A stretch of DNA of 63,970 nucleotides, counting the filler, from Phoronis australis (taxonomy: Eukaryota > Animalia > Phoronida), in NCBI GenBank assembly GCA_002633005.1. It is 8 parts of 8 records of this genome, joined end to end, with 100 filler letters (N's around TTAATTAATTAA, not from the genome) between each part and the next. Parts side by side here need not be neighbours in the genome. Positions count along the whole stretch, not along the records: positions 21,922 to 42,816 come from NMRA01000897.1; 7 more parts are not named here. One strand, written 5' to 3'. This document shows, piece after piece, positions 4,020 to 40,659 of this stretch. How positions within the stretch are numbered: the first letter of the stretch is position 1; each line of letters begins with the position of its first letter. Below the pieces are notes generated by a model. The model was not told where the DNA came from. It saw only the letters and a program-made list of their open reading frames with translations, and did no database searches. A program made the translations under genes and the position numbers.

Positions 4020-4119
4020 NNNNNNNNNNNNNNNNNNNNNNNNNNNNNNNNNNNNNNNNNNNNTTAATTAATTAANNNNNNNNNNNNNNNNNNNNNNNNN
4101 NNNNNNNNNNNNNNNNNNN
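4020..4119. other. Assembly gap spacer (N-TTAATTAATTAA-N, 100 bp); identical spacers at 8510-8609, 21822-21921, 42817-42916, 48289-48388, 51356-51455, 62344-62443
   Basis: The same N run with a central TTAATTAATTAA (stop codons in all six frames) occurs seven times. It is an artificial contig linker. Confidence 0.97.
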
Positions 4120-11917: not shown

Positions 11918-14900
11918 CTACAATGGTGTACAAAACGTCCAAGTGTTTCTAACTAAGAACAAAATCCTTGTAACGCTCAGAAAGTCTAACCTCTCGCCTA
12001 GGACGGGGTGAGGGTTCAGCAAGAGGTGTGACTTCGTTGTCGCGATTATCAGGTGCTCTAGCGGTGTCCCACGTCCCCTCTGTGGGGTCCTGTAACGGAA
12101 CATCTGCTGAAGGTTTAGCAACAGGTACAGCTTTGTTGTCGCGTTTGCTAGAATTGATGTTCTAGTCGTCTCCCTCGGCTCCTCTAGGGGATCTTGCAAC
12201 GGGACCTCTGACACTGGCTTTATGGGCACCCTATTTCTTTGGTATTCTCCTCCAGTTTGACTGTCTATGACCGTGTATGACCTTTCCCCATCCACAGATG
12301 TCACAACCCCGCGTGACCACTTATTCGGCCGATCTGAGGGGTTCTTCAGGAATGACACGGGTTAGCTTTCCTCTAACGGACAGGGATTGCTTCTCGACTT
12401 GTTCGTCGCTTCAGCGTGTTCAGAAAGAGCTGTATCCAACATGTATAAGGGAATGCATGGCAAGTCTGTTTTGACTTTCCTGTAGAACATCAGCTCAAAC
12501 GGGGAAGGAATGTTCTGGCTGATCGGGGTACCTCGTATTATCAAAAGAATATCGTCTATTGCCAAGTCATCATTCTTTGAGTTCTCCATGAGTAATTTTA
12601 TCTTTCCCAACGTTCTCTCGCATCTACTATTCTGCCACTGGGAGTGGGGTGTAGCAGGCGTTTGGGTTATGTTATACTGCATACACATTTCCTGGAACAT
12701 TTCATTCATATACTGCGTGCCGTGGTCACTAACAATCTGTGTTGGATACCCGAACTCGTTGCATGTCTCTTTTACGTGCTCCACGATGCTGGCTGCATCT
12801 TGAGTTTTCATGTGCCTTATCCAAGGAAAACCTATGTGATAGTCGACAATGCACAAATAGGTGTTCTGCTTGTGATGGAAACATCCTGTCCTACAATCTG
12901 AATGGGCATAGTAGTCATAACACTGGGATCACTGTATTGGCTTTTTGCTTTGGTTGATTTTCTAGACATTCTGGGCAAGTAAGAATCATTTGCTTGACCT
13001 GTTCCTTCATACCAGGCCAGAAGAACTTTTCTCGGGCTCTCTCAAGGGTTTTCTGCACTCCTTGTGCTCGATGAAGTCTCTTCAAGAGTATCCTCTCATT
13101 ATTTGGAGAATAACTATCCTGCATCCACGGATTAAAACCCCATTCAGCCATGCTAAATCATGTCTGTAATTCCAATAAGCCATGGTTTGGTCTGGCATTT
13201 GGTTCTCATGCTCAGGCCACCCTTTTTTAATAAATGGCAACAATTTGCCATCAAAACTGGATCTTCGGAAGTTTCAGCTCGTATATTTTGAATGTCTGAT
13301 CCAGTCGTAGTGTTCACCTCAAGAATTCCAATGGTGGTGATATCTGGTAAAACTGGCACTTGCTTGGGTCTAAGTGGAACACACCTTGACAAACAATCTG
13401 GGACATGCATCTCACTTCCTTTCTTACAAACAACTTCTATCTCATAGCCTTGCAACATTCGGACCATATGTTGCAGCCGTGGGGGTATGCTGTGAATGTC
13501 TTTCTTGAAGATAGCTAATTGTAATGGCTGGTGGTCTGTGTGGACTGTAAATTTTTGTCTGTAGACATACTGCTTGTAATGCAAGATCTGCCCACACGAC
13601 GCCCAGCAGCTCTCTCTCTATATTTGAATACTTGGTTTCTGCATCTACCAGGCTTCTTGATGTAAAATTAATTGGCCTGCCCTCTTGAGTCAAACAAGCT
13701 CCCAATCCCTTTAGTGAGGCATCGTATTCAATTGTTATCTCTTTAGCTGGATCAAAATACCGGAGGGTCTCCGCTTTAAGGACACATTCTTTCAAGGTAT
13801 TCAGCATCTCTGTGTGTTGATCAGTCCAAGTGAAATCGTTGTCTTTTTTCAACAGTCGTCTTAGCTCATAAGTCTTAGCAGACAAGTTAGGGATAAATTT
13901 GCCAAGGTATGTAAAGCAGCCCAGTAAAGACTATAATTCAAGCTTGTTGTCAGGAGGTGCTATCCTCCATATAGCATCCAACTTTTTAGGATCTGGCTTA
14001 ATGCCTTCTGGTGTAAGTACGTGGCCAAAGTAACGAATCTCTGACGGAAGTATCTTTGCTTTCTTCGGATTCAGCCGGAATCCTGACTCTCTGCAGCGCT
14101 GAATGACGTGATTCAGGGCAATATCATGATCACGTCTTGTCTGTGCTGCAATCAAGATATCCAAATGTGTCGTCAATGGCACGTTGGAAGACATCTTGTG
14201 AGCTATAAAGCCCAGATGGCAATCGCTGACAGCTGTATCTGCCAAAGGGACTGTTAATTGTAAGCAAGGGAACACTCTGTGGATGCATCTCAATATTCCA
14301 GTATCCACGGGACTGATCTAGTGCCGAGAAATACCTACACCCATTTACATGTAGCTGCGTTATTACTTCATCCAAGGTATGAGTGTAATGGTGGGGTCTT
14401 TTCACAGCCCTGTTTAACGGTTTAGGATCAAGACACACCCTTAGCTGGCCGTTTGGTTTTGGGGTACACACTAGGCTGTTTACCCAGGGCGTGGCTTCCT
14501 GCTGCTTCTTGTTAATTCCAAGCTCTTCCATACGGTTGAGTTCCATCAGAAGTTGTTTTTTGACAGCAGCTAGGTGGCACTCTTCTTGGAGGGCGTACCA
14601 CTGGTGGGACAGTATCATCTATCTGAATTTTATACTTATAGTCCTTCAGTTTCCCAACTCCTGTAAAAACATCCTTGGCGTCTTCAATAACCTGCTTTGT
14701 GGAGATAACTCTGATCGGTCCATCTCGTTTGACACAATTCTCTTTTCCTGACTTGACTTCACTGATGTCGAAGTCACCGTTACAATCTTTGCAAGTACCG
14801 CGCTCATTGCAAAGCATTTTCACAATGTTAATTGCTTTGCAGAACCTCAACGATAATAGATTGTTTCCCAAAATCTGAAACAAAAAAGGGTACCGTATGT

Positions 14901-15241
14901 CCAGCGACGTTTTTGTGGAAAAAACATCCAATCCAAAACTTGCCATGATTGGTGAAACTTTTACCACCATAACCAGTCAGTTTGACTGCGGATTTCCGGA
15001 GTTTCTTGACTGCATCGGCCCCGTACAGCTTCTTATATGTGGCAATATTCAGGAGATTAACTTGGGCCCCAGTATCAATTTTGCCCTTCAGTCTATTTTT
15101 TCTCCCTGATGTCTCGATCCTAACAACAGCAAATTGGGTATCTGGCCCAAGGTCATCATCAAAATGGATTTCACCTGCCTGGGTCCCCACTGTCTCAAAT
15201 GACGCGCTGTCATACTCGTCGCAAAAAAATTTTTCCTCCAA
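11918..15241 (-). pseudogene. Gypsy-A pol (protease, RT, RNase H, integrase), many frameshifts and stops
   Basis: PR KIDTGAQVNLL; RT PWVNSLV..PKPNGQLRVCLDPKPLN and FSALDQSRGYW; RH YDASLKGLGACL and YSNIERELLGV; IN LHRAQGV..FFWPGMK..CPEC, VSDHGTQY and PHSQWQNSRCER. The YxDD segment of RT appears deleted near 14150. Confidence 0.9.
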
Positions 15242-15299
15242 AAGATTGATAACTAGCTCCAGCTTTGTACAGTTGTTTCACATGGTTTCTTCTCTTTTT

Positions 15300-16096
15300 G
15301 GTTTCCCGCTTCTCAGGTTTATTGTTGAGCTGACAGCACCGCTCAAAATGGTTCATCTGTTTTCAGCGGTTGCATTTCTTCCCAAACGCTGGACATCGCT
15401 TTGGTGGGTGCATATATCCACATTTCGTGCTATTAATCTGTCGTGTGCGAGTTTGTCGAAGTTCATCAGTATTATATGCGGTATCAGAACACTGCGTGAT
15501 CTCCTGCCTCACTTTACCAACTTCTCGCATGTGCCGTTGTGCTGCCTCCGTCGCCCTTGCCGTGTCCAATACTTGAGTACTTGTCGCGGTCTTTGGGAGG
15601 GCATAAACTTTTTCCAAAATCTTAACATCTTTGAATCCATATTTAAGGGCCTCAGTCTCCATGATGCTTGAAATGTCATTTGAATATTCACATTGCTGTA
15701 ACAACTTCCTTATCCGATCATAAAATTGATCAACAGTCTCATCGGTTTGCTGCTTGACAAACTTTAATTTCGTCCGTGATGCATTCCACGGTCCTTCTGT
15801 GCCTTCCTTCTTGGCACAAATGCCATCGAAAAACGTCCACAGGGGGTTTATCTTCTCGTTATCATTACCATCAAAGGGGTGGTTTGCATGTTTCACACAT
15901 GCTTCTGGACCCATCCACTATCGACTTGGTGTTTTTCTACAAGTCCATCGTAACAATTCAGAATTTTCTGTGTCAGTGTTTTTGAACCGAATGTATTCAT
16001 CATATAGTTTTTACTAGAACATTCAAGTTGTTTCGGCATTTCTTCACCGTGTAAACGAGTCTTTCCTGTTGCTTCTATTTCGTCTCTCAAGGTCAT
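15300..16096 (-). pseudogene. Gypsy-A gag, frameshifted
   Basis: KQQTDETVDQFYDRIRKLLQQCEY (gag MHR-like) and CGYMHPPKRCPAFGKKCN (double Zn-knuckle typical of Mag-like Gypsy). ATG at 16096. Confidence 0.8.
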
Positions 16097-21821: not shown

Positions 21822-22199
21822 NNNNNNNNNNNNNNNNNNNNNNNNNNNNNNNNNNNNNNNNNNNNTTAATTAATTAANNNNNNNNNNNNNNNNNNNNNNN
21901 NNNNNNNNNNNNNNNNNNNNNACACACGGGGCTTCAGCATCCACACACTTTTTGTCAGTTAGTTGACCCTGTTGACCGCAATTGTCCACGAATATAGTAA
22001 CCTTAGGTCTTTTGGGAATTTGTGGCCACCTGTCGAAGACTTGCACCAGGGAAATTAGCAGTAATAAGGCTTAGCGCGACGACGTATTTTGATAAAAATT
22101 CCATCTTTTACCAGTTGTTTACATGCAGACAGCCACGCATGCGCAATTCAATCACCACTAGTACAGCAGCGACACCGCGAGGAGAATTCTCCGAATAGC

Positions 22200-23785
22200 C
22201 CCATTGCTATCTCATGGCTATGTCCACGTAAATCACCAGGGACGTCAACGTCGAGGCTGTCGCCTGGCCATACCACAGTGGCTGTAGGAGGTGAACGCAG
22301 AACGTGCGTTCTACGGACAAGTGTCTGTCTTGACAAAGACTTACAGTGATCATAGCGATATGCATCAACTTCTCCTACACCAACCTGTTTCTTAGCTGGG
22401 TGAACGTAGATGTTGTTTCTCACCATAAATGGGGTAGCAGCAAGGACGTCTACATCAAGTGTCTTAATGACCAGGCCCTCGAAAACCAATTTGTGGCTGT
22501 CAAGCTTGAAAGTGATATTGCTTTCGCCGACAACATCGAGTGGGGAGACACCATCAGTTTGGAAAGCATGCTGTGTGTTGGGGACGATAGGTACTGTACC
22601 GAGTGATCACGCACAAGATTCGCGAATCATATTTCCTGTAGCACCACAATCGAGAGTGAGTCGTACTGGTTGATCGTGGCGCACAACGTCGATGAAAGGT
22701 GACTGGATAATGTGCACTCGGTTGGGCTCCTCGGGTTCACAAATCTCGTTGGGACACTCTGAGAGATGGGGATCATCAACCTCGGAGAAGCGAGCCTTCT
22801 AGCGTTTGTCTTCTGCGGGTAAGTAGGGACACTGAGACAAGTAGTGATCAAACTGGGAGCGATGAGTCACGTTTACACAGTGGGCAGGACTTTGCTGGGC
22901 TTCGGCGAGTGACCAAGGACGCCTTGCGAGGAAATGCCCGTAACGCCTTGGCATCTTCGAGTGTTTGTAACTCGTCAAGCAATGGCTGGAGTGCCTGCGA
23001 AATTTCTGGTTTGATCGATGCAAGTGACTTACTTCGGAGTTTGGGACCATATCGCGGTTGGACGAGATGAGGTAAACCTGGGTGAATCAAGCGTAACCAA
23101 GTGAGAACTGCCAAACTCTCTAAGGTCGGAGACATCGCTTCATCGTCTGTGATAAGCACGCCATGATGTAAAATGGTGTTGTCCGAGCCGAGCAAATCGT
23201 CTTCGATAAATGACATGAGTCGCTGATATAGGTCTTCCGGGCGTTCGTCGGGATGGAGGCGGATATCAGAAAAAACAATGAAATGTCCTCCAGATGTCTG
23301 AAAGCTGTAATGACTTCTGATAGTTTGCCATTTTTCGGTTAGTGAGGTGGACTGTTTGACAATAGCACTACGGGCAATCACAGGACAATAGTTGGCCAAT
23401 TGGCCTAGCATGAGGTTTAAGTGGGTTAGTTTCTGACCGGCTGTGCGTCCCCGGGATTCAGGTACAGCGTCTGTATCGTCAACTAAACCTCTCAAGGGGA
23501 CTTTTTGCCACGTATAATCGGCTTGCAGAAAGTCCGCAAATTTCGGATCGAGTAATAACACGTAAGTTATATTGTTCTTCCAGTTATCAAACCTGGTGAT
23601 AGTTTCACGTTCAGTCAAGCACCACTGCTTCGGTGCTCTGGGTATGGTTCGATTGCTACTGCCACCACGCCAGTAATAATAAAAGACGACTTGGCTTACA
23701 TGTACGTCTGTATTTTTATAGAACAGCGACCGAAACCCAGTAACCAAATAATACGTACGAATAGTACACAAATAATGGCGCAACA
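22200..23785 (-). mobile_element. Truncated Ty3/Gypsy element (Gypsy-B): 5' LTR, PBS, gag, protease
   Basis: gag RAPKQWCLTERETITRFDNWKNNITYVLLLDPKF...DERPEDLYQRL...CPLCK..HYLSQCPYL. Protease LTLDCGATGNMI (~22665-22625) and LDVDVLAATPFM. Putative 118-bp LTR 23785-23668 starting TGTTG, followed by TGGTGGCAG (tRNA-Leu-like PBS start). No RT is visible. Confidence 0.8.
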
Positions 23786-23994
23786 AAGAAACTATTGAAA
23801 TGCTTCAATGAAACTTTGATCAAAGTGGCGGATCTAGGATATCACAAGGGGGGACCAACATTTTGTCTGTAAACACTTGATCCAAGCACGATTGTAGATG
23901 TGCCGAATGGGGGGAGGTCGGGAGGGGGGTTTGCCGCCCAGGAAATTTTTCTGTTTTTTCCTCTAAAATCAAGAATTTTCCTTGATTCCCGAAG

Positions 23995-30239: not shown

Positions 30240-33200
30240 AGGTCAACTTGAATCCTCGGCCATGAGTCAAAGACCGTTCACACCCTGTCACTGATCCCTG
30301 GACTGTACCCGGACTATGATGAAAAGCATTATGATCCACAACTGAATGCAGTCAACTCAATAACAAACCTCCCCTCTTCAGGGACCTTGAGTAGAGATAA
30401 TGCAACACACACAAATGCTACGGCGTTGAGTAAGGATTACAAACATAACTTTATCTTCACTCACCTTAATATCAGTTACTTTTCCTCAAAATTTGATGAA
30501 GTTGCAGAATCTCTCATGTCTTATGTAGATTTAAGTTTTTATCTGAAACAAAGCTTGGCGAGTCCTTTGCCTCAGCACAATTTTCTGTCCCTAACTATAT
30601 TACTACATAGAAATGATAGAAGTAGACATGGTGGTGGTATTTTGTCTTATGCCAGAGGTGACTTGGGACATAAGCGAAGGCAAGACCTGGAATGTACCCA
30701 CGGAAATGTGGAATGTCTTGTCCTGGAAGTTGTCATAAAGAGAGATTAGTGGTTCTTCATATGTATGTATAAACCACCGCAAGTGAAAAATGTAGATCTG
30801 TTGACATGTATTGATGCTGTCTTGAGTAGAGTCCAACTAGAGAGTGACACGATCTTTCTCATAGGAGATATGAATGTGAACATGCTTTGTAATAATGCAC
30901 TAAACGATTTCATGGATGTCTATGGTCTAAAAAGTGTTGTCAAGGAGCCTACATGTTTCAAGGGCCCACCCTCTCTACTAGATGTTATCCTAACTAACAA
31001 ACCTAGAAGACTAGTTCGAATCTTGAATTATGATTCGGGTGTAAGTGATTTTCATCATGTTGTTGGTGGTATTGCCAAAGTCCAAATTTCGCAATATCAA
31101 CCCAGAAAATTTTTTGACCGCTCCATGAAATCGTTCTCTATAAATGACTACATTAGGGACCTTGAGGTAGCACCCTTTCATGTAGCCAACATTTTTGATG
31201 ATACTGATGATGCTTTATGGTTTCATAATGAGCTCCTGAGGCAGGTAATTGACTTTCATGCTCCAATGAAGACCAAGGTCTTAAGGAAGCTTCCTGTCCC
31301 TTATATGAATGGCGAACTTAGAAGAGCCATAAACGTCAAGGGAATGCTCAGACGCCGCTACTTTAAATACAGAAATGCTGAAAACTGGGAGAATTACAGA
31401 TGCCAGCGAAATCTAGTCACTAGATTGAAAAGAAAATCCATATGCCAGTATTTCCAAACAAACAGTGACATCAATGACTCATGCAATTCAAAGCTCTTTT
31501 GGAACAGATTTAAGCCTTTTGTTTGTGAAGGAACAGACAGAAATGGGATAACGTTGTATGAAAATGGTCAACTTGTCACGGATGCTGATAAGGTAGCTGA
31601 AATCTTTAATAGTTACTTTTTTTGAATCGGTGGAATCAATCAGTTCCCAGTTTCCAAATGTAAATTCTTACAATGATTATGCTTCTCATCCGAGTGTCAC
31701 CTCGATTCTCTCCAAAAGTGCAGAAGGATCAATTCAACGGGTCCTCAGCTTCTCAATTGTCACTGAAAACGACGTCCTGTGTAAGCTTAAGGGCATTACA
31801 TGCAATAAATCGATGGGTTATGACTCATTACATCCGAGATTCCTTAAGTATGGCGCTCATACAATATGCAAGTCCCTAACACTCATATTCAACAAGTGCA
31901 TAGCCTCCAATGAGTATCCCTCTATGTTGAAAAAAGTCAGGTTAGCCCAGTATTTAAGAAAGGGGACCGAATGGATAAATCCTGTTATAGACCAGTTAGT
32001 ATGCTAACTGCTGTTAACCAAGTTTTTGAACGACGTATTCTAGACCAATTGAACCTACATTTTGATGAAATTTTAAATGAAAATTTATGTGCTTTCCGTA
32101 AAGCTAGGTTTTTCTTGTCAGGATGTCTTGTTACGGCTAACTGAAGATGTAAGGTTAGCTCTGGATAATAATATATTTGCTGGATGCACACTAATTGATC
32201 TGTCTAAAGCTTTTGATTGCCTCCCCCATGAGCTCCTTTTGCCAAACTAAAAGCCTATGGCTGCACATTGAATACCTGTAACCTCATAATGTCCTGTCTC
32301 AGTGATAGAAGGATGAGAGTGAAAATTGGCTCCACTGTCAGTGACTGGTTAAATGTCCCCAAGGGCGTTCCTCAAGGGTCTGTTTTAGGCCCCATGTTAT
32401 TCAACATTTTTATCAATGATATATTTAACGCTATAAGTGGTCACTGTAAGTTATATAATTACGCTAATGACAATACCCTCTTGCAAGCAGGCTCCTCTTA
32501 GCAGTTCGCTTCAGCCTCAAGGTAGCTGGGCAGATGGTATTGGATTGTTTTCCTCTAATGGAATGGCTGTAAACCCTGGTAAATTTAAGTCAATCATCTT
32601 TTCTAGGAATCATGTACATAAGGATAGGTATCTCATGTCTGGTGATACTATGATTGAGTGTGAAGAATCCGTTAAGCTGCTAGGTGTCCAACTTGACAGC
32701 CAGTTAAAATTCCATTAGCACGTTGATGTTACTTGCAAACAAGCTTCTAGACAAATGAATGCCTTGTTCCGTCTTCGTAATGTTTTAGGCATTAACAGTA
32801 AGCTTAAGCTATATTACGCATTTATAAAATACCATTTTAATCACTGGCCCCTCGTTTTGCACCTATGTGGAATACAGAAAAGTAGGAAAATGGAAAAGAT
32901 ACAACACCGTGCTTTAAAATTTGTGTTCAATGACAGCGAGTCAAGCTACTCACAACTCTTAGATAAGGCTAGGAGCTGCTCTCTAACTAGTTGGCGGATG
33001 AAATGTTTATCTATTGAAGTATTCAAAAATGTTCATATTATAATGGACCCTGGCCTTTGTCAGGAAAGCTTGAATTTAGGGAGTCTGTGGATACGGTCCC
33101 AGAGGTGAAAACTGTCTCTATGTGAAACGCTTTAATACGATGACTTACGGATGTAACTCAATCTCCCATAAAGGTACTTTGCTGTGGAACTCATTGCCAT

Positions 33201-33339
33201 CAGTAATGAGACAATATACGTACTGCTTTAAATGAATTTGCCACTCTTGCTCATGATTTTTTCTCTGAGATCGACTCTTGTGAAAACTGATACGGATGTC
33301 TACACGCTCTGTAACATGTATGTGTACTTTTGTATTTAT
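30240..33339 (+). mobile_element. CR1/L2-clade LINE ORF2 (APE endonuclease + RT), decayed
   Basis: APE motifs HLNI, RNDRSRHGGGI, YKPP, IGDMN, PTCFKG..LLDVIL and SDFHH. RT motifs DLSKAFD, GVPQGSVLGPMLFNIFIND, YANDNTL (decayed YADD), LLGVQLDSQLKF and KMEKIQHRALKFV. Multiple stops and frameshifts. Confidence 0.92.
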
Positions 33340-33987
33340 TGTAACAGGAGTGCCCTGGACATGATTATGTAAGTAAGATATATGCGCCCTCTAATGGTCA
33401 AGCTGTGTATTACGTATGGAATTTTCCTATGATTTTTGAGTCCTTTGGATATGGCGAAATAGGGTCAGAACCTAGGAGTTATGGCCTTGCCCTTCGGATC
33501 GTGTCTGATTGGTTGAAATTGTGTACTTAAGCTTTGTCTCTGTCAGACACGAGGAGTCCAGTCGCAGAGTTCAAGAAGCAAACATTTACACCTTCACTCA
33601 CACCAAATTGCAACTGTTTGTGCAACTTTCGGGCTCCTCCCGAACTTGGTTGCCAATAGTTTAGCCCCAGCAATTCTCGGGCTCCTCCCGAGCTTGACTG
33701 CATCTCACCTTTCGGATCTGAATAACCAAATTGCCCCGTTCTTGCACACACAACTATCAATCAGCGACTGGCTTGCCCGTGTATCAGAACTGTATAAATC
33801 ACAACGCTGCGATACTAAATCATGGAACAACTGGATTGCTTGTAAGTGTGAAATATTGTAGTTATATATTCTTACAATAAACCTATGTATTATTCACCAA
33901 CTTTTAGTTTTCAATATCACCCTCAGTCCGCACCGGGCTCGTAAAATCGGGGCGCCTTGGTCGTACTGAGAAACCGCTACCGTTACA
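33340..33987 (+). repeat. Gypsy-C 5' LTR (648 bp)
   Basis: TGTAAC...GTTACA ends. ATTGG (~33508), TATA-like TACTTAAG (~33524), Inr-like CCAGTC (~33558), AATAAA (~33875). Confidence 0.92.
33822..33841 (+). CDS. Predicted first coding exon (MEQLDC-L) of the Gypsy-C accessory gene, inside the LTR
   Basis: aatcATGGAACAACTGGATTGCTT|GTAAGT: good Kozak context and a consensus donor at 33842. Phase 2 matches the acceptor at 39301. Confidence 0.55.
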
Positions 33988-33988
33988 C

Positions 33989-34010
33989 TGGTGCACGTGG
34001 CCCGCGGATA
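33989..34010 (+). promoter_or_regulatory. Primer binding site, degenerate tRNA-His-like
   Basis: TGGTGCACGTGGCCCGCGGAT lies 1 nt after the LTR and resembles TGGTGCCGTGACTCGGAT with indels. Confidence 0.5.
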
Positions 34011-34628
34011 TGTGCGAGTGATGTTGGAAAGCAGTAAACTAAAATTTCTTACCGTCAATGCCTATTAGTGCGTTAATGACATTCTTTTCGTTGCTCATGC
34101 CGTTGACGTCTTGTCACGCTCGCTGGGTGATGTTTGGAATTAATTAACTCACATAGCAAACGTCTGTTGAAGGTTGCGTGTTCAAAGTTCGCAAAACGTA
34201 ATATTTCAAACTCATAGTAGCGACATTGAACACATTTTTGTCAGTACTCCTGAGTTTATTTTCCGTTGAGGTTTCACTAAATACCCTTGTCGATTATCAA
34301 TTCACAACTTGTCGTGTGTTGCTGTTAATTTCCATGGATAACCTTGCTTTCGCGAAACTTGCAATATTCAGGTGGCGATAGCTTGAATGTGGGAAGTAAT
34401 GCCCACTTGTTGCCCAATTAATATTTTCTAGAAGTAGATTCATGTCTGTTGACGCTCTGTTGTTAGGCTACTCCATTCGTCTTCGGTTACTGTTGTCTGG
34501 TGTACTCCACCGTCACGTATTAGCAGGACACGTTTTAGTGGTTTCAATTACTGAGAGTATCATCTACTGACCTCAGGCTCAGTTCTATACGTTACATTTG
34601 CTGATTTCATCCAATTCCATAATCCAAA

Positions 34629-35717
34629 ATGACCCGTTTCTTGTCAAATGTGTCGAATTGGTTTACTCCCTCGTTTATGGCGGCAGAAAATCACGTCGAA
34701 CCGGATCCTCTGCCTGAAATTGTCCCAGTTGGTGATTATAGAGACCGTTCCTCTGAAATGCCATACATGTATGTCAACTGTCCAAGCAACAGCCCGCCTA
34801 GTGTATTATCATTTGGCCATCAGCGACAGGCCACTATAAATCAGACTGACAGGGGAGGATAGGATTCGATGGCCCCCTGTATCAAGCAAAATTCAAAACA
34901 ACAGCAGCAACAACACGCGCTCGCCCCACCGAAACGCAAAGAACGGGTGCCACAACATTTTGACGGAAAGTCATGTGAATGGCCAGACTTTCTGCGCCAA
35001 TTCGAGAAAATTTGTAGGTGGAATGGTTGGGACGAGCAGGAGTCGGCCATGCAGTTAGTCATGTGTCTGCGGGGGCCGGCCTTGCGTGCTGTAGGGGACC
35101 TCGACGATGAAGTGTCTGAGAATTTTGACGATTTGAAAGCGGCGCTTACGCAGCGGTTCTGTCCCGCAGAACGCGTCGCCACGCACAGATGCGAGTTTCG
35201 AGGAAGGACGAGGGGGAAAACGGAAAACATCTCGGACTATGGTTTTAGTCTAAAACGGCTAGCGTCATTGGCATTCCCTGAGGTAGCCAATGACGCCCGT
35301 GAAGTTTTGGTCGTACATGTAGACCAATTCATAGCTGGGCTCAACGACCAGGCGCTGCGGAGACACGTACAATTTCAGAGGCCACTGTCCGTGGACATAG
35401 CGATTTCTCATGCACTCGAGTTCGAGGCATTTGAGGGGACCTGGTGCAGTCGGAAAAACAAAACTTCGGGTGTGGATCCCTGCCCCGACACACGAGTCAT
35501 GACCATACGGGACCGTCCAACCAACAGGCCGGACCATGCTGACATGGCTGAGATAAAGAGGGCATTAGCGGATGTTCAGCGCCAGCTCAGCGACCGAAAG
35601 CCCCGGGAACCAATCCGCTGTTACAACTGTGGGCAGGAGGGACACATCGCCAGAAAATGTCCCCAGGAAAGGAGGGGGAACACTTGTAAATCAGATACTT
35701 ATGAGTCGTCAAACTAG
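34629..35717 (+). pseudogene. Gypsy-C gag (in-frame TAG at 34860-34862; 34869-35717 open)
   Basis: PQHFDGKSCEWPDFLRQFE..NGW, LRGPA, DQFIAGL and CCHC knuckle CYNCGQEGHIARKC. Ends TCAAACTAG, a typical -1 frameshift site into pol. Confidence 0.9.
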
Positions 35718-35776
35718 GACCGGTCGGGTCCGCGGCCAAGGCCTCGACCGGGTTTGCAGAATGTTCGTTTGTTTTT

Positions 35777-38700
35777 GTGGATTTGTTTGGAGAAAAGTTT
35801 CCAGCTTTAATAGACGGCGATTCGCCTTGTTCTCTTATGTCTAGAGACGTTTTTGAGTTAAGTAGTTCACATATACGTAGTTTAGAACCCACTCTCATTT
35901 CATTGTCATGCGCAGGTGGGGCGCGTATTAATGATTACGGTTGCGTGGTGGCTGATTTTGACGTAACAGGCTTGCGACTGAAGCAGCGATTTGTTGTCGC
36001 CGACGTCAATCCTCAGGTGATTCTTGGATCAGACTTTTTGAAAAATAATTTTTGTAATTTGAGTGCAGCTCAGGAGGGTGACGTTTTACACCTCTGTGGA
36101 AAGTCGATCAATCTTTTGTCGGAGAAGAGGGTGCTTTGCAGTGTCATAGTTCCAAGGTCCATTTCTGAGGGGACGTTTGTCAGCGAAGTTACTGTCCATC
36201 TTCCGCCTCATTTGGAACCTGTAATTAAGGACGTAAGTGAGCGGTTGACTCCACAGCAGACTCTTTTGGTGCGGAAACTTGTGGCCGAGTTTTCAGATGT
36301 TTTCGCCGGTCCCAATGGCGAGCTTGGGAGAACTACGCTGGTCGAGCACACCATCTACACAGGCGATCATTTTCCAATTAAACAGGCTCCTCGACGGTTA
36401 CCTATAGCTCAGCGGGAGATTGCCGATGCGGAGATCGACAAGATGCTGGCTGCTGGGTTTATCGAACCAAGTGATTCGCCATGGGCCTCGCCGATGGTGT
36501 TGGTGCGAAAGAGAGAATCCAGCTACCGATTCTGTGTAGACTACCGGAAGTTGAACGCAGTGACCAGGAAAGATGCCTATCCTCTCCCATGCATAGACAC
36601 CTGCCTAGATTCCCTCGCGGGCATGTCATGGTTTACCACCCTTGACATGGCCAGTGGATATTGGCAGGTGCCAATGGCCAAGAAAGACAGGTCAAAGACT
36701 GCATTCGCCACTCATAGGGATCTTTTTGAGTTCACGTCTATGCCTTTTGGTCTGGCAAATGCACCATCTAGTTTTGAGCGTTTGGTAGAGAAGGTTTTTG
36801 CGGGAATGCAATGGGACAAGTGTTTACTGTATATTGACGACATCCTGGTCTTTGCAAAGACTTTCGACGACGCCCTCTGCGATCTCCGAGCACTTTTTCT
36901 ACGGTTGCGGGAGGCCGGTCTGCGACTTAAGCCGACCAAGTGCAGTCTGTTTCGGAGGGAAGTACCTTTCCTAGGCCACGCAGTGTCTGAGGCAGGAGTA
37001 AGTTGTGACCCTGAAAAGGTTGCTGCGGTTGCAGATTGGGAGACACCATCCTCAGTTTCGGAAGTACGCAGTTTCCTTGGATTGGCCTCATATTACCGAA
37101 GATTCATTCCTAACTTCTCCACTGTTGCTGCACCGTTGTCACGTTTGACCGGGAAGAACCAACGATTCGAGTGGGATGACACGTGCCAATTGGCATTTGA
37201 CCAGCTGAAGATACTGCTTACCAACCATCCAGTGTTAGCGTATCCCCGGCGGCAGGGAAGGTTTATCCTTGACACAGATGCATCGGCCTTTGGCATCTCA
37301 GGAGTACTATCTCAGGAACAGGATGGCGAGGAGAGGGTCATCGCCTATGCCAGCCAAACTCTGTCAGCGTCACAACAGCGCTACTGCACCACGTATCGTG
37401 AACTTTTGGCTGTTGTTACGTTTGTTAAGCGGTTCCGGCATTATTTGTGGGGCCGCAACTTCCTTATAAGAACAGATCATCACTCCTTGAAGTGGTTAAA
37501 GAAGTTTAAGGAACCCGTCGACATAGTTGCCAGGTGGATAGCGGTACTCGACACATATGACTACGAGATTAAGCACCGGAAGGGTAATCACCACGGTAAC
37601 GCTGATGGTTTGTCCAGGAAACCGTATCGCAGGTGCCAGCGATCTGATTGTGACCAGTGTGCTGGTCAACGAGTTGTCGCTGCAGTGAGACGGGGAAGAC
37701 GTGTCACCAAGGAACGTGAAAAACCCTGAGAGTGACGCTTAGCTGCCTACCTGGAATAAAGATGAGCTTCGTACTCTGCAACAGAACGATAAGGCCATAG
37801 GTCCAGTTGTGAAATTCATGTCTGAGTCCTCGGAGAAGCCAGAGCTTAAAGCTATATTGGGGCACTCCTGGGGTACCCGGCGTTTATTTTCTGGGTGGAA
37901 CCTTTTGCGCTTGCAGGATGGTGTTCTGTATCGGCGTTGGATCGACGCCCGTGGCGGCGGTGATCGAATGGTGATTGTACTTCCACGTCAGTTACGGAGT
38001 CAGGTTCTCCAGCTGACGCATGACGCAAGGACAGCGGGACATCTTGGTCGCAACAAGACTATTAGGACCGTCCGTTCTCGTTTCTACTGGCCAGGGCTGC
38101 AGGGTGATGTTTCCAGGTGGTGCAAGCGTTGCGAGATGTGCGCACGTCGCAAACCAGGTCCGGGCAGAGGTCGCGCACCACTTCAGCAGGGGCAAGCAGG
38201 CGCTCCATTCCAGCGCATTGCTTTGGACATACTTGGTCCTCTTCCAAAATTCGTACAATGACATGGAATACATCATGGTGGTCGGAGACTACCTTACCAA
38301 GTGGACGGAAGCTTATGCCTTACCAAACCACACGGCTCAGACAGTCGCAGACAAACTCGCGACAGAGTTTATCTCTAGATTTGGTGTACCAACGTACATC
38401 CATTCTGATCAGGGTCGGGAGTTTGAGAGTAACTTGTTCTCTGAACTTTGTCAATTGCTCGGAATGCAGAAGACTAGAACCACCCCATATCGTCCGCAAT
38501 CCGATGGCATGGTGGAGCGGTTTAATCGCACGGTCCAAGGGATGTTGGCCATGTTCGTAGACAAGCATCGGAGGGACTGGGACGACCATCTACCGTACGT
38601 CATGATGGCATATCGTTCTTCAGAGCATGACAGCACTGGTTTCACACCATACAAGTTATTGTTCGGTCGGGAGGTGTCGCTACCTTTGGATGTTATAGCT

Positions 38701-39150
38701 GGTAACCCTCCTGATGGTGTTGTGTCAGAATGTGCCAGTGAATATAACGAGTGGCTGTGTCAGACGCTGGAGGACGCCTGGAGCTTTGCTCGGGAGGCGC
38801 TGAATTCAAGTTTTCAGCGGCAGAAGAAGTACTACGATGCCCGAGAGAAATTTCGCAAATTTTGTGATGGGGACTGGGTCTTCCGATAGTACCCTCCAAC
38901 TGCTAACCAGAAACTTGGTCTTGGGTGGGTAGTTAGACGAGTAAGTGATGTGCTGTATGAAGTTCAGAAGGGACTTGATATGCCCAAAATTGTAGTCCAT
39001 GTTGATCATTTGAAGCCGTGGCATGGGCTTATTGGAGTTCACGAGAGACGAGATGCCACTCCGGAGCCTGATCAGGGGGCGGAGGTGGTAAGCTCAGAAG
39101 AGGTCGACAGTGAAGTGTGTTCTGGCTCTCTGGACATTCTGATCGAGTGA
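35777..39150 (+). pseudogene. Gypsy-C pol (PR-RT-RNase H-IN); stop at 37727, frameshift ~38255, stop at 38887
   Basis: RT SPWASPMVLVRK..YRFCVDYRKLN, LDMASGYWQ and YIDDIL. RH DTDASAFG, RELLAV and TDHHSL. IN HD...GHLG..FYWPG..CEMC, HSDQGREFES and PYRPQSDGMVER. C-terminal VVHVDHLKPW. Confidence 0.95.
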
Positions 39151-39301
39151 GGCTAAGAATGATGTTTCTTCGGGTACTGACTGCCGTGGCGCTGTCCACG
39201 CTGCAGCAAGAACACCAGTTGTTCGCAACCGCCGAGGCAGGTTGATCAAGACACCGGCCCGGTTTCTATAATTTTTTTAAAAATTTTGTTTCTTCTTGCA
39301 G

Positions 39302-39773
39302 AGACCTTCAGCCAGATCCTGCAGAGGTGGAGCAACTTGTGGGGAAGCCAGAGGAGGCCACCAGCCAATCTCGACCCGTATACAAGTGCACCGAGTGTGA
39401 CAGGACGTTCACCAAATTTTACACGCTGAAGCAGCACGGAAAGACTTGCTCACCGTTAATTAAACTTACCTGTTGTTCACATTGTAAGCGTAGGTTTTCA
39501 GCTAGACGCGCGTGCCGAAAACACCAACGCAAGACCGGCCACGACGGAACGACAGAAATACTGGTTCAGAACCGGAAACATGCAAAGGCTGTCGCTGCCG
39601 CAGAACGCCGGCGAGAGGTAGACGCCAGAAGGGACGTTCCCCAGCCATTTCCTGAAGTTACGGTGGCGCGAGACGAGGCAGTGCGTTGGGATCGACCGAG
39701 AAGGCCGGATGTATGTCTCCCCCAAACCGCACTGGTTCCGCGTCCCCGTCGAGCCATACCGCCATTATATTAG
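39302..39773 (+). CDS. Gypsy-C accessory ORF (exon 2): basic protein with two C2H2-type zinc fingers
   Basis: Strong acceptor ttttgtttcttcttgcag (AG 39300-39301). Open frame to TAG at 39773 with YKCTECDRTFTKFYTLKQHGKTC and CSHCKRRFSARRACRKHQRKTGH. There is no in-frame ATG after the acceptor, implying splicing. Confidence 0.7.
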
Positions 39774-40051
39774 CTAGCTAGTGTTTTTAGTTCGTTTGAT
39801 GTATGTGTACAGGTGATGGCCGCACCTTAATTGTTTTCTTTTATTCATTTTTTGTATTAGTTTGATTTTTTTATTACGGGCAGTGTTACTGTGTAAGTTG
39901 CTCGATTAACTTCATGGTGTTTGGATAGTTTCTTTTTGTCGTTATCAGTTTGATTTTGATATCGATATGTTTAAGTGATTTGAAGTTCACTCCTGTTTCT
40001 TTTATTTTTTATTATCAGTCACGGGTGTGACATGATCTGAGGCAGGGGGAG

Positions 40052-40659
40052 TGTAACAGGAGTGGCCTGGACATGATTATGTAAGTAAGATATATGCGCC
40101 CTCTAGTGGTCAAGCTGTGTATTACGTATGGAATTTTCCTATGATTTTTGAGTCCTTTGGATATGGCGAAATATGGTCAGAACCTAGGAGTTATGGGCCT
40201 TGCCCTTCGGATCGTGTCTGATTGGTTGAAATTGTGTACTTAAGCTTTGTCTCTGTCAGACACGAGGAGTCCAGTCGCAGAGTTCAAGAAGCAAACATTT
40301 ACACATTCACTCAAACCAAATTGCAACTGTTTGTGCAGCTTTCGGGCTCCTCCCGAACTTGTTGCCAATAGTTTAGCCCCAGCAATTCTCGGGCTCCTCC
40401 CGAGCTTGATTGCATCTCACCTTTCGGATCTGAATAACCAAATTGCCCCGTTCTTGCACACACAACTATCAATCAGCGACTGGCTTGCCCGTGTATCAGA
40501 ACTGTATAAATCACAACGCTGCGATACTAAATCATGGAACAACTGGATTGCTTGTAAGTGTAAAATATTGTAGTTATATATTCTTACAATAAACCTATGT
40601 ATTATTCACCAACTTTTAGTTTTCAATATCACCCTCAGTCCGCACCGGGCTCGTAAAAT
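40052..40659 (+). repeat. Gypsy-C 3' LTR, lacking its last 40 bp
   Basis: Identity to the 5' LTR stops after ...gggctcgtaaaat. The equivalent of 33948-33987 and the TSD are absent. Confidence 0.9.

Follow-up and report, generated by a model that had tools for sequence, protein, structure and literature searches.

The 63,970-nucleotide (nt) stretch of Phoronis australis DNA analyzed here (the window; filler included) contains, in its part from NMRA01000897.1, a Gypsy long terminal repeat (LTR) retrotransposon with an additional gene downstream of pol, in the position of env, which encodes a protein with two C2H2 zinc fingers. A zinc-finger accessory gene of this kind, fed by splicing and present across the lineage of Gypsy elements, is real; a start in the LTR is plausible, and the function of the protein is predicted. 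The anatomy of the element, the recurrence of the gene and its acceptor in relatives, and the entry of RNA at the acceptor are held with high confidence. For the complete reading, i.e., a Gypsy lineage with a post-pol two-finger C2H2 gene that is entered by splicing, probably from an LTR leader, and is predicted to regulate its own LTR, the chances are evenly balanced.

33340-40659, plus strand: Gypsy element with two LTRs, primer-binding site, gag, pol, 472-nt exon and polypurine tract.
39272-39301, plus strand: pyrimidine tract and acceptor AG (39300-39301), recognized from the sequence, an RNA depth step and loose read ends.
39302-39773, plus strand: zinc-finger exon, with an acidic start, fingers at about 39387-39539, a basic helix and an RDE motif.

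The zinc-finger exon comprises 472 nt from 39302, is open up to the stop at 39771-39773 and lacks an in-frame ATG; an open frame of this length arose in 0.15% of shuffles. Joined to the 20 nt of a predicted first coding exon in the LTR, it would give 163 codons plus a stop. The open frame, its lack of an ATG and the 163-codon product had been proposed in an earlier, sequence-only reading of the window. The uninterrupted frame, the two fingers (C2HC and C2H2) and the lack of an ATG were confirmed by translation, Pfam and a structure model, and the ATG at 33822, the GTAAGT at 33842, phase 2, the AG at 39300-39301 and the 163-amino-acid length all proved correct on recheck. The last ligand of finger 1 is Cys, and finger 2 closes with His-His. 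Ligands of the form Cx2-4C...Hx3-5H/C and the beta-beta-alpha fold, found by Pfam, alignment and the model, identify a C2H2 protein; its Pfam zf-C2H2 match (E 9e-4) lies under the curated cut-off, and the predicted structure has two beta-beta-alpha units and a long basic helix (residues 83-110). No envelope or fusion glycoprotein domain was found in this third open reading frame (ORF3), for which Pfam yields zinc-finger families only. The pol frame ends at TAA 39269-39271, behind an R..GR.IK.P..F tail that is also present in relatives, and the finger frame is therefore a separate unit. Two other origins of its translation were rejected: the in-frame ATGs at 39159/39162 both lie inside the pol tail and are followed by a stop at 39243-39245, and pol, from which read-through was considered, stops 28 nt ahead of the AG in another frame.

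The gene recurs among related elements. Two integrase scans yielded 63 loci, 37 of which were scored (best-segment identity of at least 42%), the other 26 being weaker, bacterial or partial (L014 and L051). Fourteen of the scored loci had less than 900 nt past the integrase core, leaving 23 for the finger-frame count. A sense C2H2 frame follows integrase in 14 of these 23, as against 0/23 on the antisense strand and 0.35% of shuffles; with near-copies merged (L029/30/31/33 and L043/47) the count is 11 of 19, and the short locus L026 also bears a finger frame. The integrase relatives that have names come from marine invertebrates (Mytilus, Pinctada), and none was found among viral contigs. In a tree built on integrase with 33 rows, after 3 had been dropped for short matches, the finger label changes 3 times versus 7.4 when shuffled (0/500 shuffles), and the nearest neighbors with enough DNA (L002, L037 and L019) all carry the gene. 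The classical C2H2 tail was absent from 120 pol relatives, the few loose regular-expression matches falling inside pol.

Zinc ligands could be aligned in 12 of the finger proteins, which share 15-25% identity and have divergent finger helices and tails; 10 of the 12 match the Pfam family zf-C2H2_4, and the RDE motif is common to L019, L037 and the window protein. On these sequences, a single origin of the gene is likely in the nearest group, and is not shown for all loci. Several results weigh against the complete reading: the branch uniting the window element with its neighbors is supported only 89/78; the pairwise similarity of the window and L002 proteins is not significant (E 0.26), so that separate capture may account for some of the finger genes; and 9 of the 23 loci lack the gene, which is therefore dispensable in sister lineages.

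Some related loci have unusual arrangements. The integrase of L041 (3373-5193) is fused to the module, its frame continuing into two C2H2 fingers and a tail that is acidic; the finger ORF of L028 (438 codons, 6198 onward) has a long Arg/Ser-rich repeat tail; and L045, a distant relative, has a 954-codon non-finger ORF after pol (6894 onward). Among L019-L053, many contigs assigned to bacterial metagenome-assembled genomes represent retrotransposons of animals, which makes them host DNA within the bins.

The splice acceptor recurs together with the gene. By an ad hoc score, the window acceptor ranks above pol windows (p 0.007), and the acceptor is kept before the finger gene in relatives, the best one preceding an in-frame ATG by 0-11 nt in 7 of 11 (1.9 expected, p 0.0004). 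In L026 it sits directly on the finger-gene ATG, and L044, like the window element, combines a good acceptor (phase 0 in L044) with the lack of an ATG, its LTR being unreadable on the contig. The same score fails at p<0.1 for L019, L033, L035 and L038, which counts against general conservation. RNA and the relatives together show a working acceptor ahead of ORF3, as in other spliced ORF3s.

The RNA consisted of one contig set and three raw-read runs (X2, X3 and X4; 18-19% of each raw run) from a single study, and its reads are mostly 95-99% like the window. First-mate-minus depth, which represents the sense strand in most stranded libraries, steps up at 39302 in all three raw-read runs; across the acceptor it rises from 1.8 to 15.7 to 22.3 in X4, from 2.9 to 9.3 to 13 in X3 and from 1.1 to 3.9 to 5 in X2. 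In the contig set, the finger exon is covered from 39509 on, and gag-pol almost not at all. Six X4 reads exit the window at 39299 and four at 39301, into two different sequences. Both exits lie no more than 3 nt from the AG, so splicing is their best explanation, with genomic joints as an alternative. The foreign partners imply that part of the expression likely comes from host exons trapped by inserted copies. A host spliced leader was rejected as the partner on the median loose lengths (79 and 47 nt, set against commonly known leader lengths) and the presence of two partners.

Other RNA results speak against the LTR as the source of the message. The 33841-39302 joint, which the sequence-only reading had predicted, is listed in none of the four runs. 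At the low expression of the element this negative is weak: a joint is listed from 3 reads upward, 18-19% of each raw run was covered, and the leader has a sense depth of 1-9. By eye, the X4 partners correspond to none of 225 G|GT(A/G) window sites, and not to the LTR exon either, and 7 reads in X3 come from a deletion joint, not splicing. The earlier proposal of a spliced non-env accessory gene in the env position thus stands as regards recurrence and RNA entry at the acceptor, with the LTR joint still a plausible prediction.

Three further RNA signals were noted. A joint that skips 1098 nt, from 38210 to 39309, is present in 3/3 raw runs, with 2, 5 and 2 reads on both strands; it has 4 nt of microhomology, is not GT-AG, brings the finger exon into frame with the zinc-binding region of integrase and likely reflects a deleted copy elsewhere. 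In X2 and X3, the LTR end and leader (33788-34683) have antisense-type depth of 16-31, and loose ends occur at 33932 and 34068; a partial copy within a host transcript is the probable cause. Finally, one LTR variant lacks most of U3: a contig and a small number of reads pass over 461 nt (33359 to 33821) at a CATG microhomology, and the gap ends at the proposed ATG.

The earlier contrast between an intact finger frame and a decayed gag-pol carries no weight. Gag-pol has five breaks in about 4.6 kb, a rate at which a stretch of 472 nt would be expected to contain about 0.5 (hand estimate); among 5 copy-specific differences from nearly all reads before 39690, 4 alter an amino acid; and a short frame-shifting indel near 39690 separates the window copy from 6/8, 8/9 and 20/21 reads and from the contig. 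Because most reads differ in this way, the last ~27 codons of the 163-amino-acid protein are probably peculiar to the window copy, and the residues that they encode are probably not the selected ones. Past 39690, 5 of 7 partial differences fall at first positions of the window frame, which are third positions of another frame. When the majority-read frame is followed, 8 of 12 partial read differences occupy third positions (p 0.02; like the preceding count, a small sample from 40 of the 110 difference rows), an excess which suggests that the finger exon was still translated in the window subfamily.

The remaining parts of the element are as follows.

33340-33987, plus strand: 5' LTR (TG...CA), 648 nt.
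33876-33881, plus strand: AATAAA poly(A) signal.
33989-34005, plus strand: primer-binding site (TGG...), which we take to be His-like.
34629-35717, plus strand: gag, interrupted by a stop at 34860-34862; Pfam Retrotrans_gag, PNMA and zf-CCHC.
35705-39271, plus strand: pol, encoding protease and reverse transcriptase, then RNase H and integrase (PR-RT-RH-IN); broken near 37727-37742, 38258, 38887 and 39147, with stop TAA at 39269-39271.
40039-40051, plus strand: polypurine tract.
40052-40659, plus strand: 3' LTR, its final ~40 nt gone.

Gag followed by pol in the order PR-RT-RH-IN (Pfam), together with paired TG...CA LTRs, a primer-binding site and a polypurine tract, places the element in Ty3/Gypsy; a similar primer-binding site occurs in L019. 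The two LTRs differ by 8 mismatches and 2 gaps over 609 columns, and no target-site duplication is left, because the 3' LTR has lost its end. The element is best explained as a recently inserted Gypsy copy that is now decaying. Eleven ATGs (33885-34442) lie between the proposed LTR start and the gag ATG at 34629, and would impede scanning on unspliced RNA. The element is inserted in the 3' tail of a decayed element resembling a long interspersed nuclear element (30252-33339 and from 40660; identity by eye), whose A-rich tail continues beyond the shortened 3' LTR. Further decayed LTR-type elements (gag/pol pieces) lie at 12362-15917 and 22148-23804, both on the minus strand. Identical blocks of ~100 nt, possibly assembly gap fillers, occur at 4020-4119 and in six other places of the window, in both orientations. 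The tRNA gene search found no tRNA genes.

The proposed beginning of the spliced message lies within the 5' LTR.

33508-33562, plus strand: candidate upstream promoter (ATTGG, TACTTAAGC, CAGT), with a predicted start near 33560.
33793-33799, plus strand: TATAAAT, which would set the cap at about 33822-33824.
33822-33841, plus strand: predicted first coding exon, 20 nt, with its ATG in good Kozak context and ending in phase 2.
33842-33847, plus strand: candidate splice donor GTAAGT.

An LTR-started transcript would be spliced from 33841 to 39302, removing gag-pol; most relatives would use a non-coding leader, and in the window element the start codon would have shifted into the LTR exon. Since the cap generally lies 29-31 nt from a TATA box, the TATAAAT at 33793 would put it on the ATG itself, and the LTR start works only with transcription from upstream of 33793, which would begin, e.g., near 33560. 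This scheme, with its relocated start codon and upstream transcription start, could equally well prove right or wrong. The candidate promoter (ATTGG at 33508, TACTTAAGC at ~33524 and CAGT at ~33559) agrees in spacing with TATATAAGC...(C/A)AGTT in the LTRs of L019 and L037 (by eye). The finger exon offers no ATG of its own, a run of 338 nt before 33822 is free of ATG (p 0.009, post hoc), the stretch from 33555 folds better than its shuffles, and the predicted start, ME..LDLQP, resembles the MEDVLELHP of L019. Donor-like sites lie 76-118 nt past a TATA-like box in L019, L028 and L037, three of the relatives whose LTR is readable, with leaders lacking ATG. In addition, L044, with no ATG behind its good phase-0 acceptor, indicates that upstream starts seem to occur.

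A number of observations weigh on the other side. GTRAGT is absent from the LTRs of L033, L034 and L035, and 24-55% of simulated LTRs contain this motif by chance. The agreement in ATG and phase noted by the sequence-only reading is weak support, at a chance of about 1 in 5: an open phase-2 ATG lies within 40 nt at 9 of 39 window GTRAGT sites, including a second LTR site at 33369 (6/36 once the test site and LTR duplicates are removed). Most relatives, moreover, keep the finger-gene ATG in the second exon. It is conceivable, albeit rather unlikely, that the lineage gene is real and that the ATG and donor stand in the LTR by coincidence, with the protein starting from another exon, or with the ATG lost in the window subfamily and the exon now serving mainly as a trap for host exons. 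The exclusively non-LTR partners at the acceptor, the unlisted LTR joint, the cap position set by TATAAAT and the chance fit at 9/39 sites all favor coincidence, as does the Met of their own that precedes finger 1 in 9 of 11 relatives, besides L044 and the fused L041 pattern. It is opposed by the ATG-less L044, the L019-like N-terminus, the ATG-free run and the third-position excess in the reads. The odds that the LTR start codon is used are about even.

The LTR also contains a candidate target for the finger protein.

33622-33653 and 33670-33701, plus strand: twin 32-nt hairpins/palindromes, candidate target of the finger protein.

The fingers are predicted to bind DNA of the element's own LTR and to regulate its transcription, acidic or Pro/Ser-rich unstructured parts would draw in the transcription machinery, with the twin palindromes (33622-33701) as a candidate target. 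This account, drawn from sequence and modeled fold, is a tentative one that falls somewhat short of an even chance. The sequence and fold matches of the finger protein are mostly to DNA-binding C2H2 proteins (CTCF, ZBTB, Tramtrack and ADR1) and are weak, and a viral fold search returned generic C2H2 proteins. The window and L002 proteins begin acidic, and long tails, acidic or rich in Pro/Ser/Thr, occur in several relatives, as is typical of activation regions. The twin palindromes are 84% alike, and one stem pair differs between the copies yet stays paired; folding of 33555-33704 gives a z of -3.0 against shuffles, compared with -0.5 for the control 33400-33549 and +1.6 downstream. Depending on the start site, the palindromes lie upstream of TATAAAT or at the RNA 5' end, in either case outside the intron, the expected place of an export element; together, these observations favor an LTR regulator over an export factor or counter-silencing. 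The regulator reading is weakened by the low significance of all the fold matches (best PDB E 6e-3) by the predominance of DNA complexes in the PDB, and by the additional matches to TFIIIA and MP42.

Alternatively, the same spliced gene may act as Rev or CERV does, its fingers and Arg-rich helix binding element RNA and exporting the unspliced genomic RNA. Strong splice sites require a way to export unspliced RNA, and CERV of Cer1, a Gypsy/Ty3 element of C. elegans, does so from a spliced post-pol ORF, according to the available part of its description (PMC10309623). Located in the same slot after pol, CERV is the closest working model. The long basic helix, the RS-rich tail of L028 and the folding of the twin repeats as RNA hairpins are also in keeping with export. 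Conversely, the hairpins are outside the intron, tandem C2H2 pairs match mainly DNA binders and no export signal was found by eye. CERV itself, as characterized in the same part of that source (PMC10309623), is confined to Caenorhabditis and has 517 amino acids, five exons, frames shared with gag and a C4-type loop; by this description, its H, M and G domains, C4 loop and gag-shared exons set it apart from the present protein, which, by its Pfam matches and model, shows no homology to it. Here, a two-finger C2H2 protein of ~160 amino acids with one predicted intron is distributed over many diverged elements of marine-invertebrate type. Export of this kind is regarded as unlikely.

Still less probable is a protein that counters host silencing, or decoys host zinc-finger repressors, and does not act on the element promoter. 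The rapid divergence of finger helices and tails among relatives would suit such a role, and retroelements carry varied host-directed ORF3s, judging by the accessible text of PMC5408684. However, no enzymatic or chromatin-reader domain was found in the finger protein, and direct evidence is lacking. Capture of a functionless host zinc-finger fragment by this one copy, as might be suggested by an exhaustive protein search that gave only generic multi-finger proteins among the best 150 of 499 matches and by word-index searches with the window and L002 frames that gave nothing at E<=0.001 (near lengths only), is refuted by the gene's presence in the same position in 14/23 related loci and by reads of several divergence classes that cover the exon.

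Foamy-virus Tas, HTLV Tax and HIV Tat are among the regulators that are encoded close to the 3' LTR and made from spliced RNA whose donor lies in the LTR or leader. The window gene shares this arrangement as a prediction; the three proteins differ from its product in belonging to Retroviridae, in not being C2H2 proteins and in having demonstrated activity, that of the window protein being predicted. The errantivirus env (PMC13524379) and Drosophila sORF2 (bioRxiv 10.1101/2025.03.14.642691) are likewise third genes in the same Gypsy slot. As far as the available parts of these sources go, both encode membrane fusion proteins, in contrast to the soluble finger protein, and the words "zinc" and "C2H2" do not occur in the available text of PMC13524379, nor "zinc" in that of PMC6338049. 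In bdelloid LTR retrotransposons, the non-env ORF3s (GDSL, DEDDy, CC and TM) resemble the present gene as family-specific extra post-pol ORFs, typically expressed from spliced messages, and differ from it as enzymes or membrane proteins; "finger" is absent from the portion of the text available (PMC5408684). The same portion indicates that non-env ORF3s are common (PMC5408684). A C2H2 ORF3 in a Gypsy element was not found in the literature covered, and may be annotated in Repbase, GyDB, Dfam, subscription journals or supplements, which were outside this scope.

Gypsy elements without env are usually treated as simple gag-pol elements. A survey of mollusc Gypsy elements classifies them without mentioning extra ORFs, "ORF" and "zinc" having 0 occurrences in its available text (PMC6238403). 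A lineage-wide C2H2 regulator gene, if true, would constitute a second self-regulatory case beside CERV, with a testable LTR target. In a broader and doubtful extension, a widespread "complex" Gypsy lineage of marine invertebrates would encode its own C2H2 factor on a spliced RNA begun in the LTR; this factor would diverge in step with the LTR palindromes, and in the subfamily of the present element the start codon would have moved into the LTR. Inserted copies would hand the finger exon to host genes via the acceptor, and new zinc-finger genes could then arise through this strong acceptor. Host C2H2 proteins are known to repress transposons, so an element with fingers of its own that become available to host exons would bear on the origin of finger genes in invertebrates.

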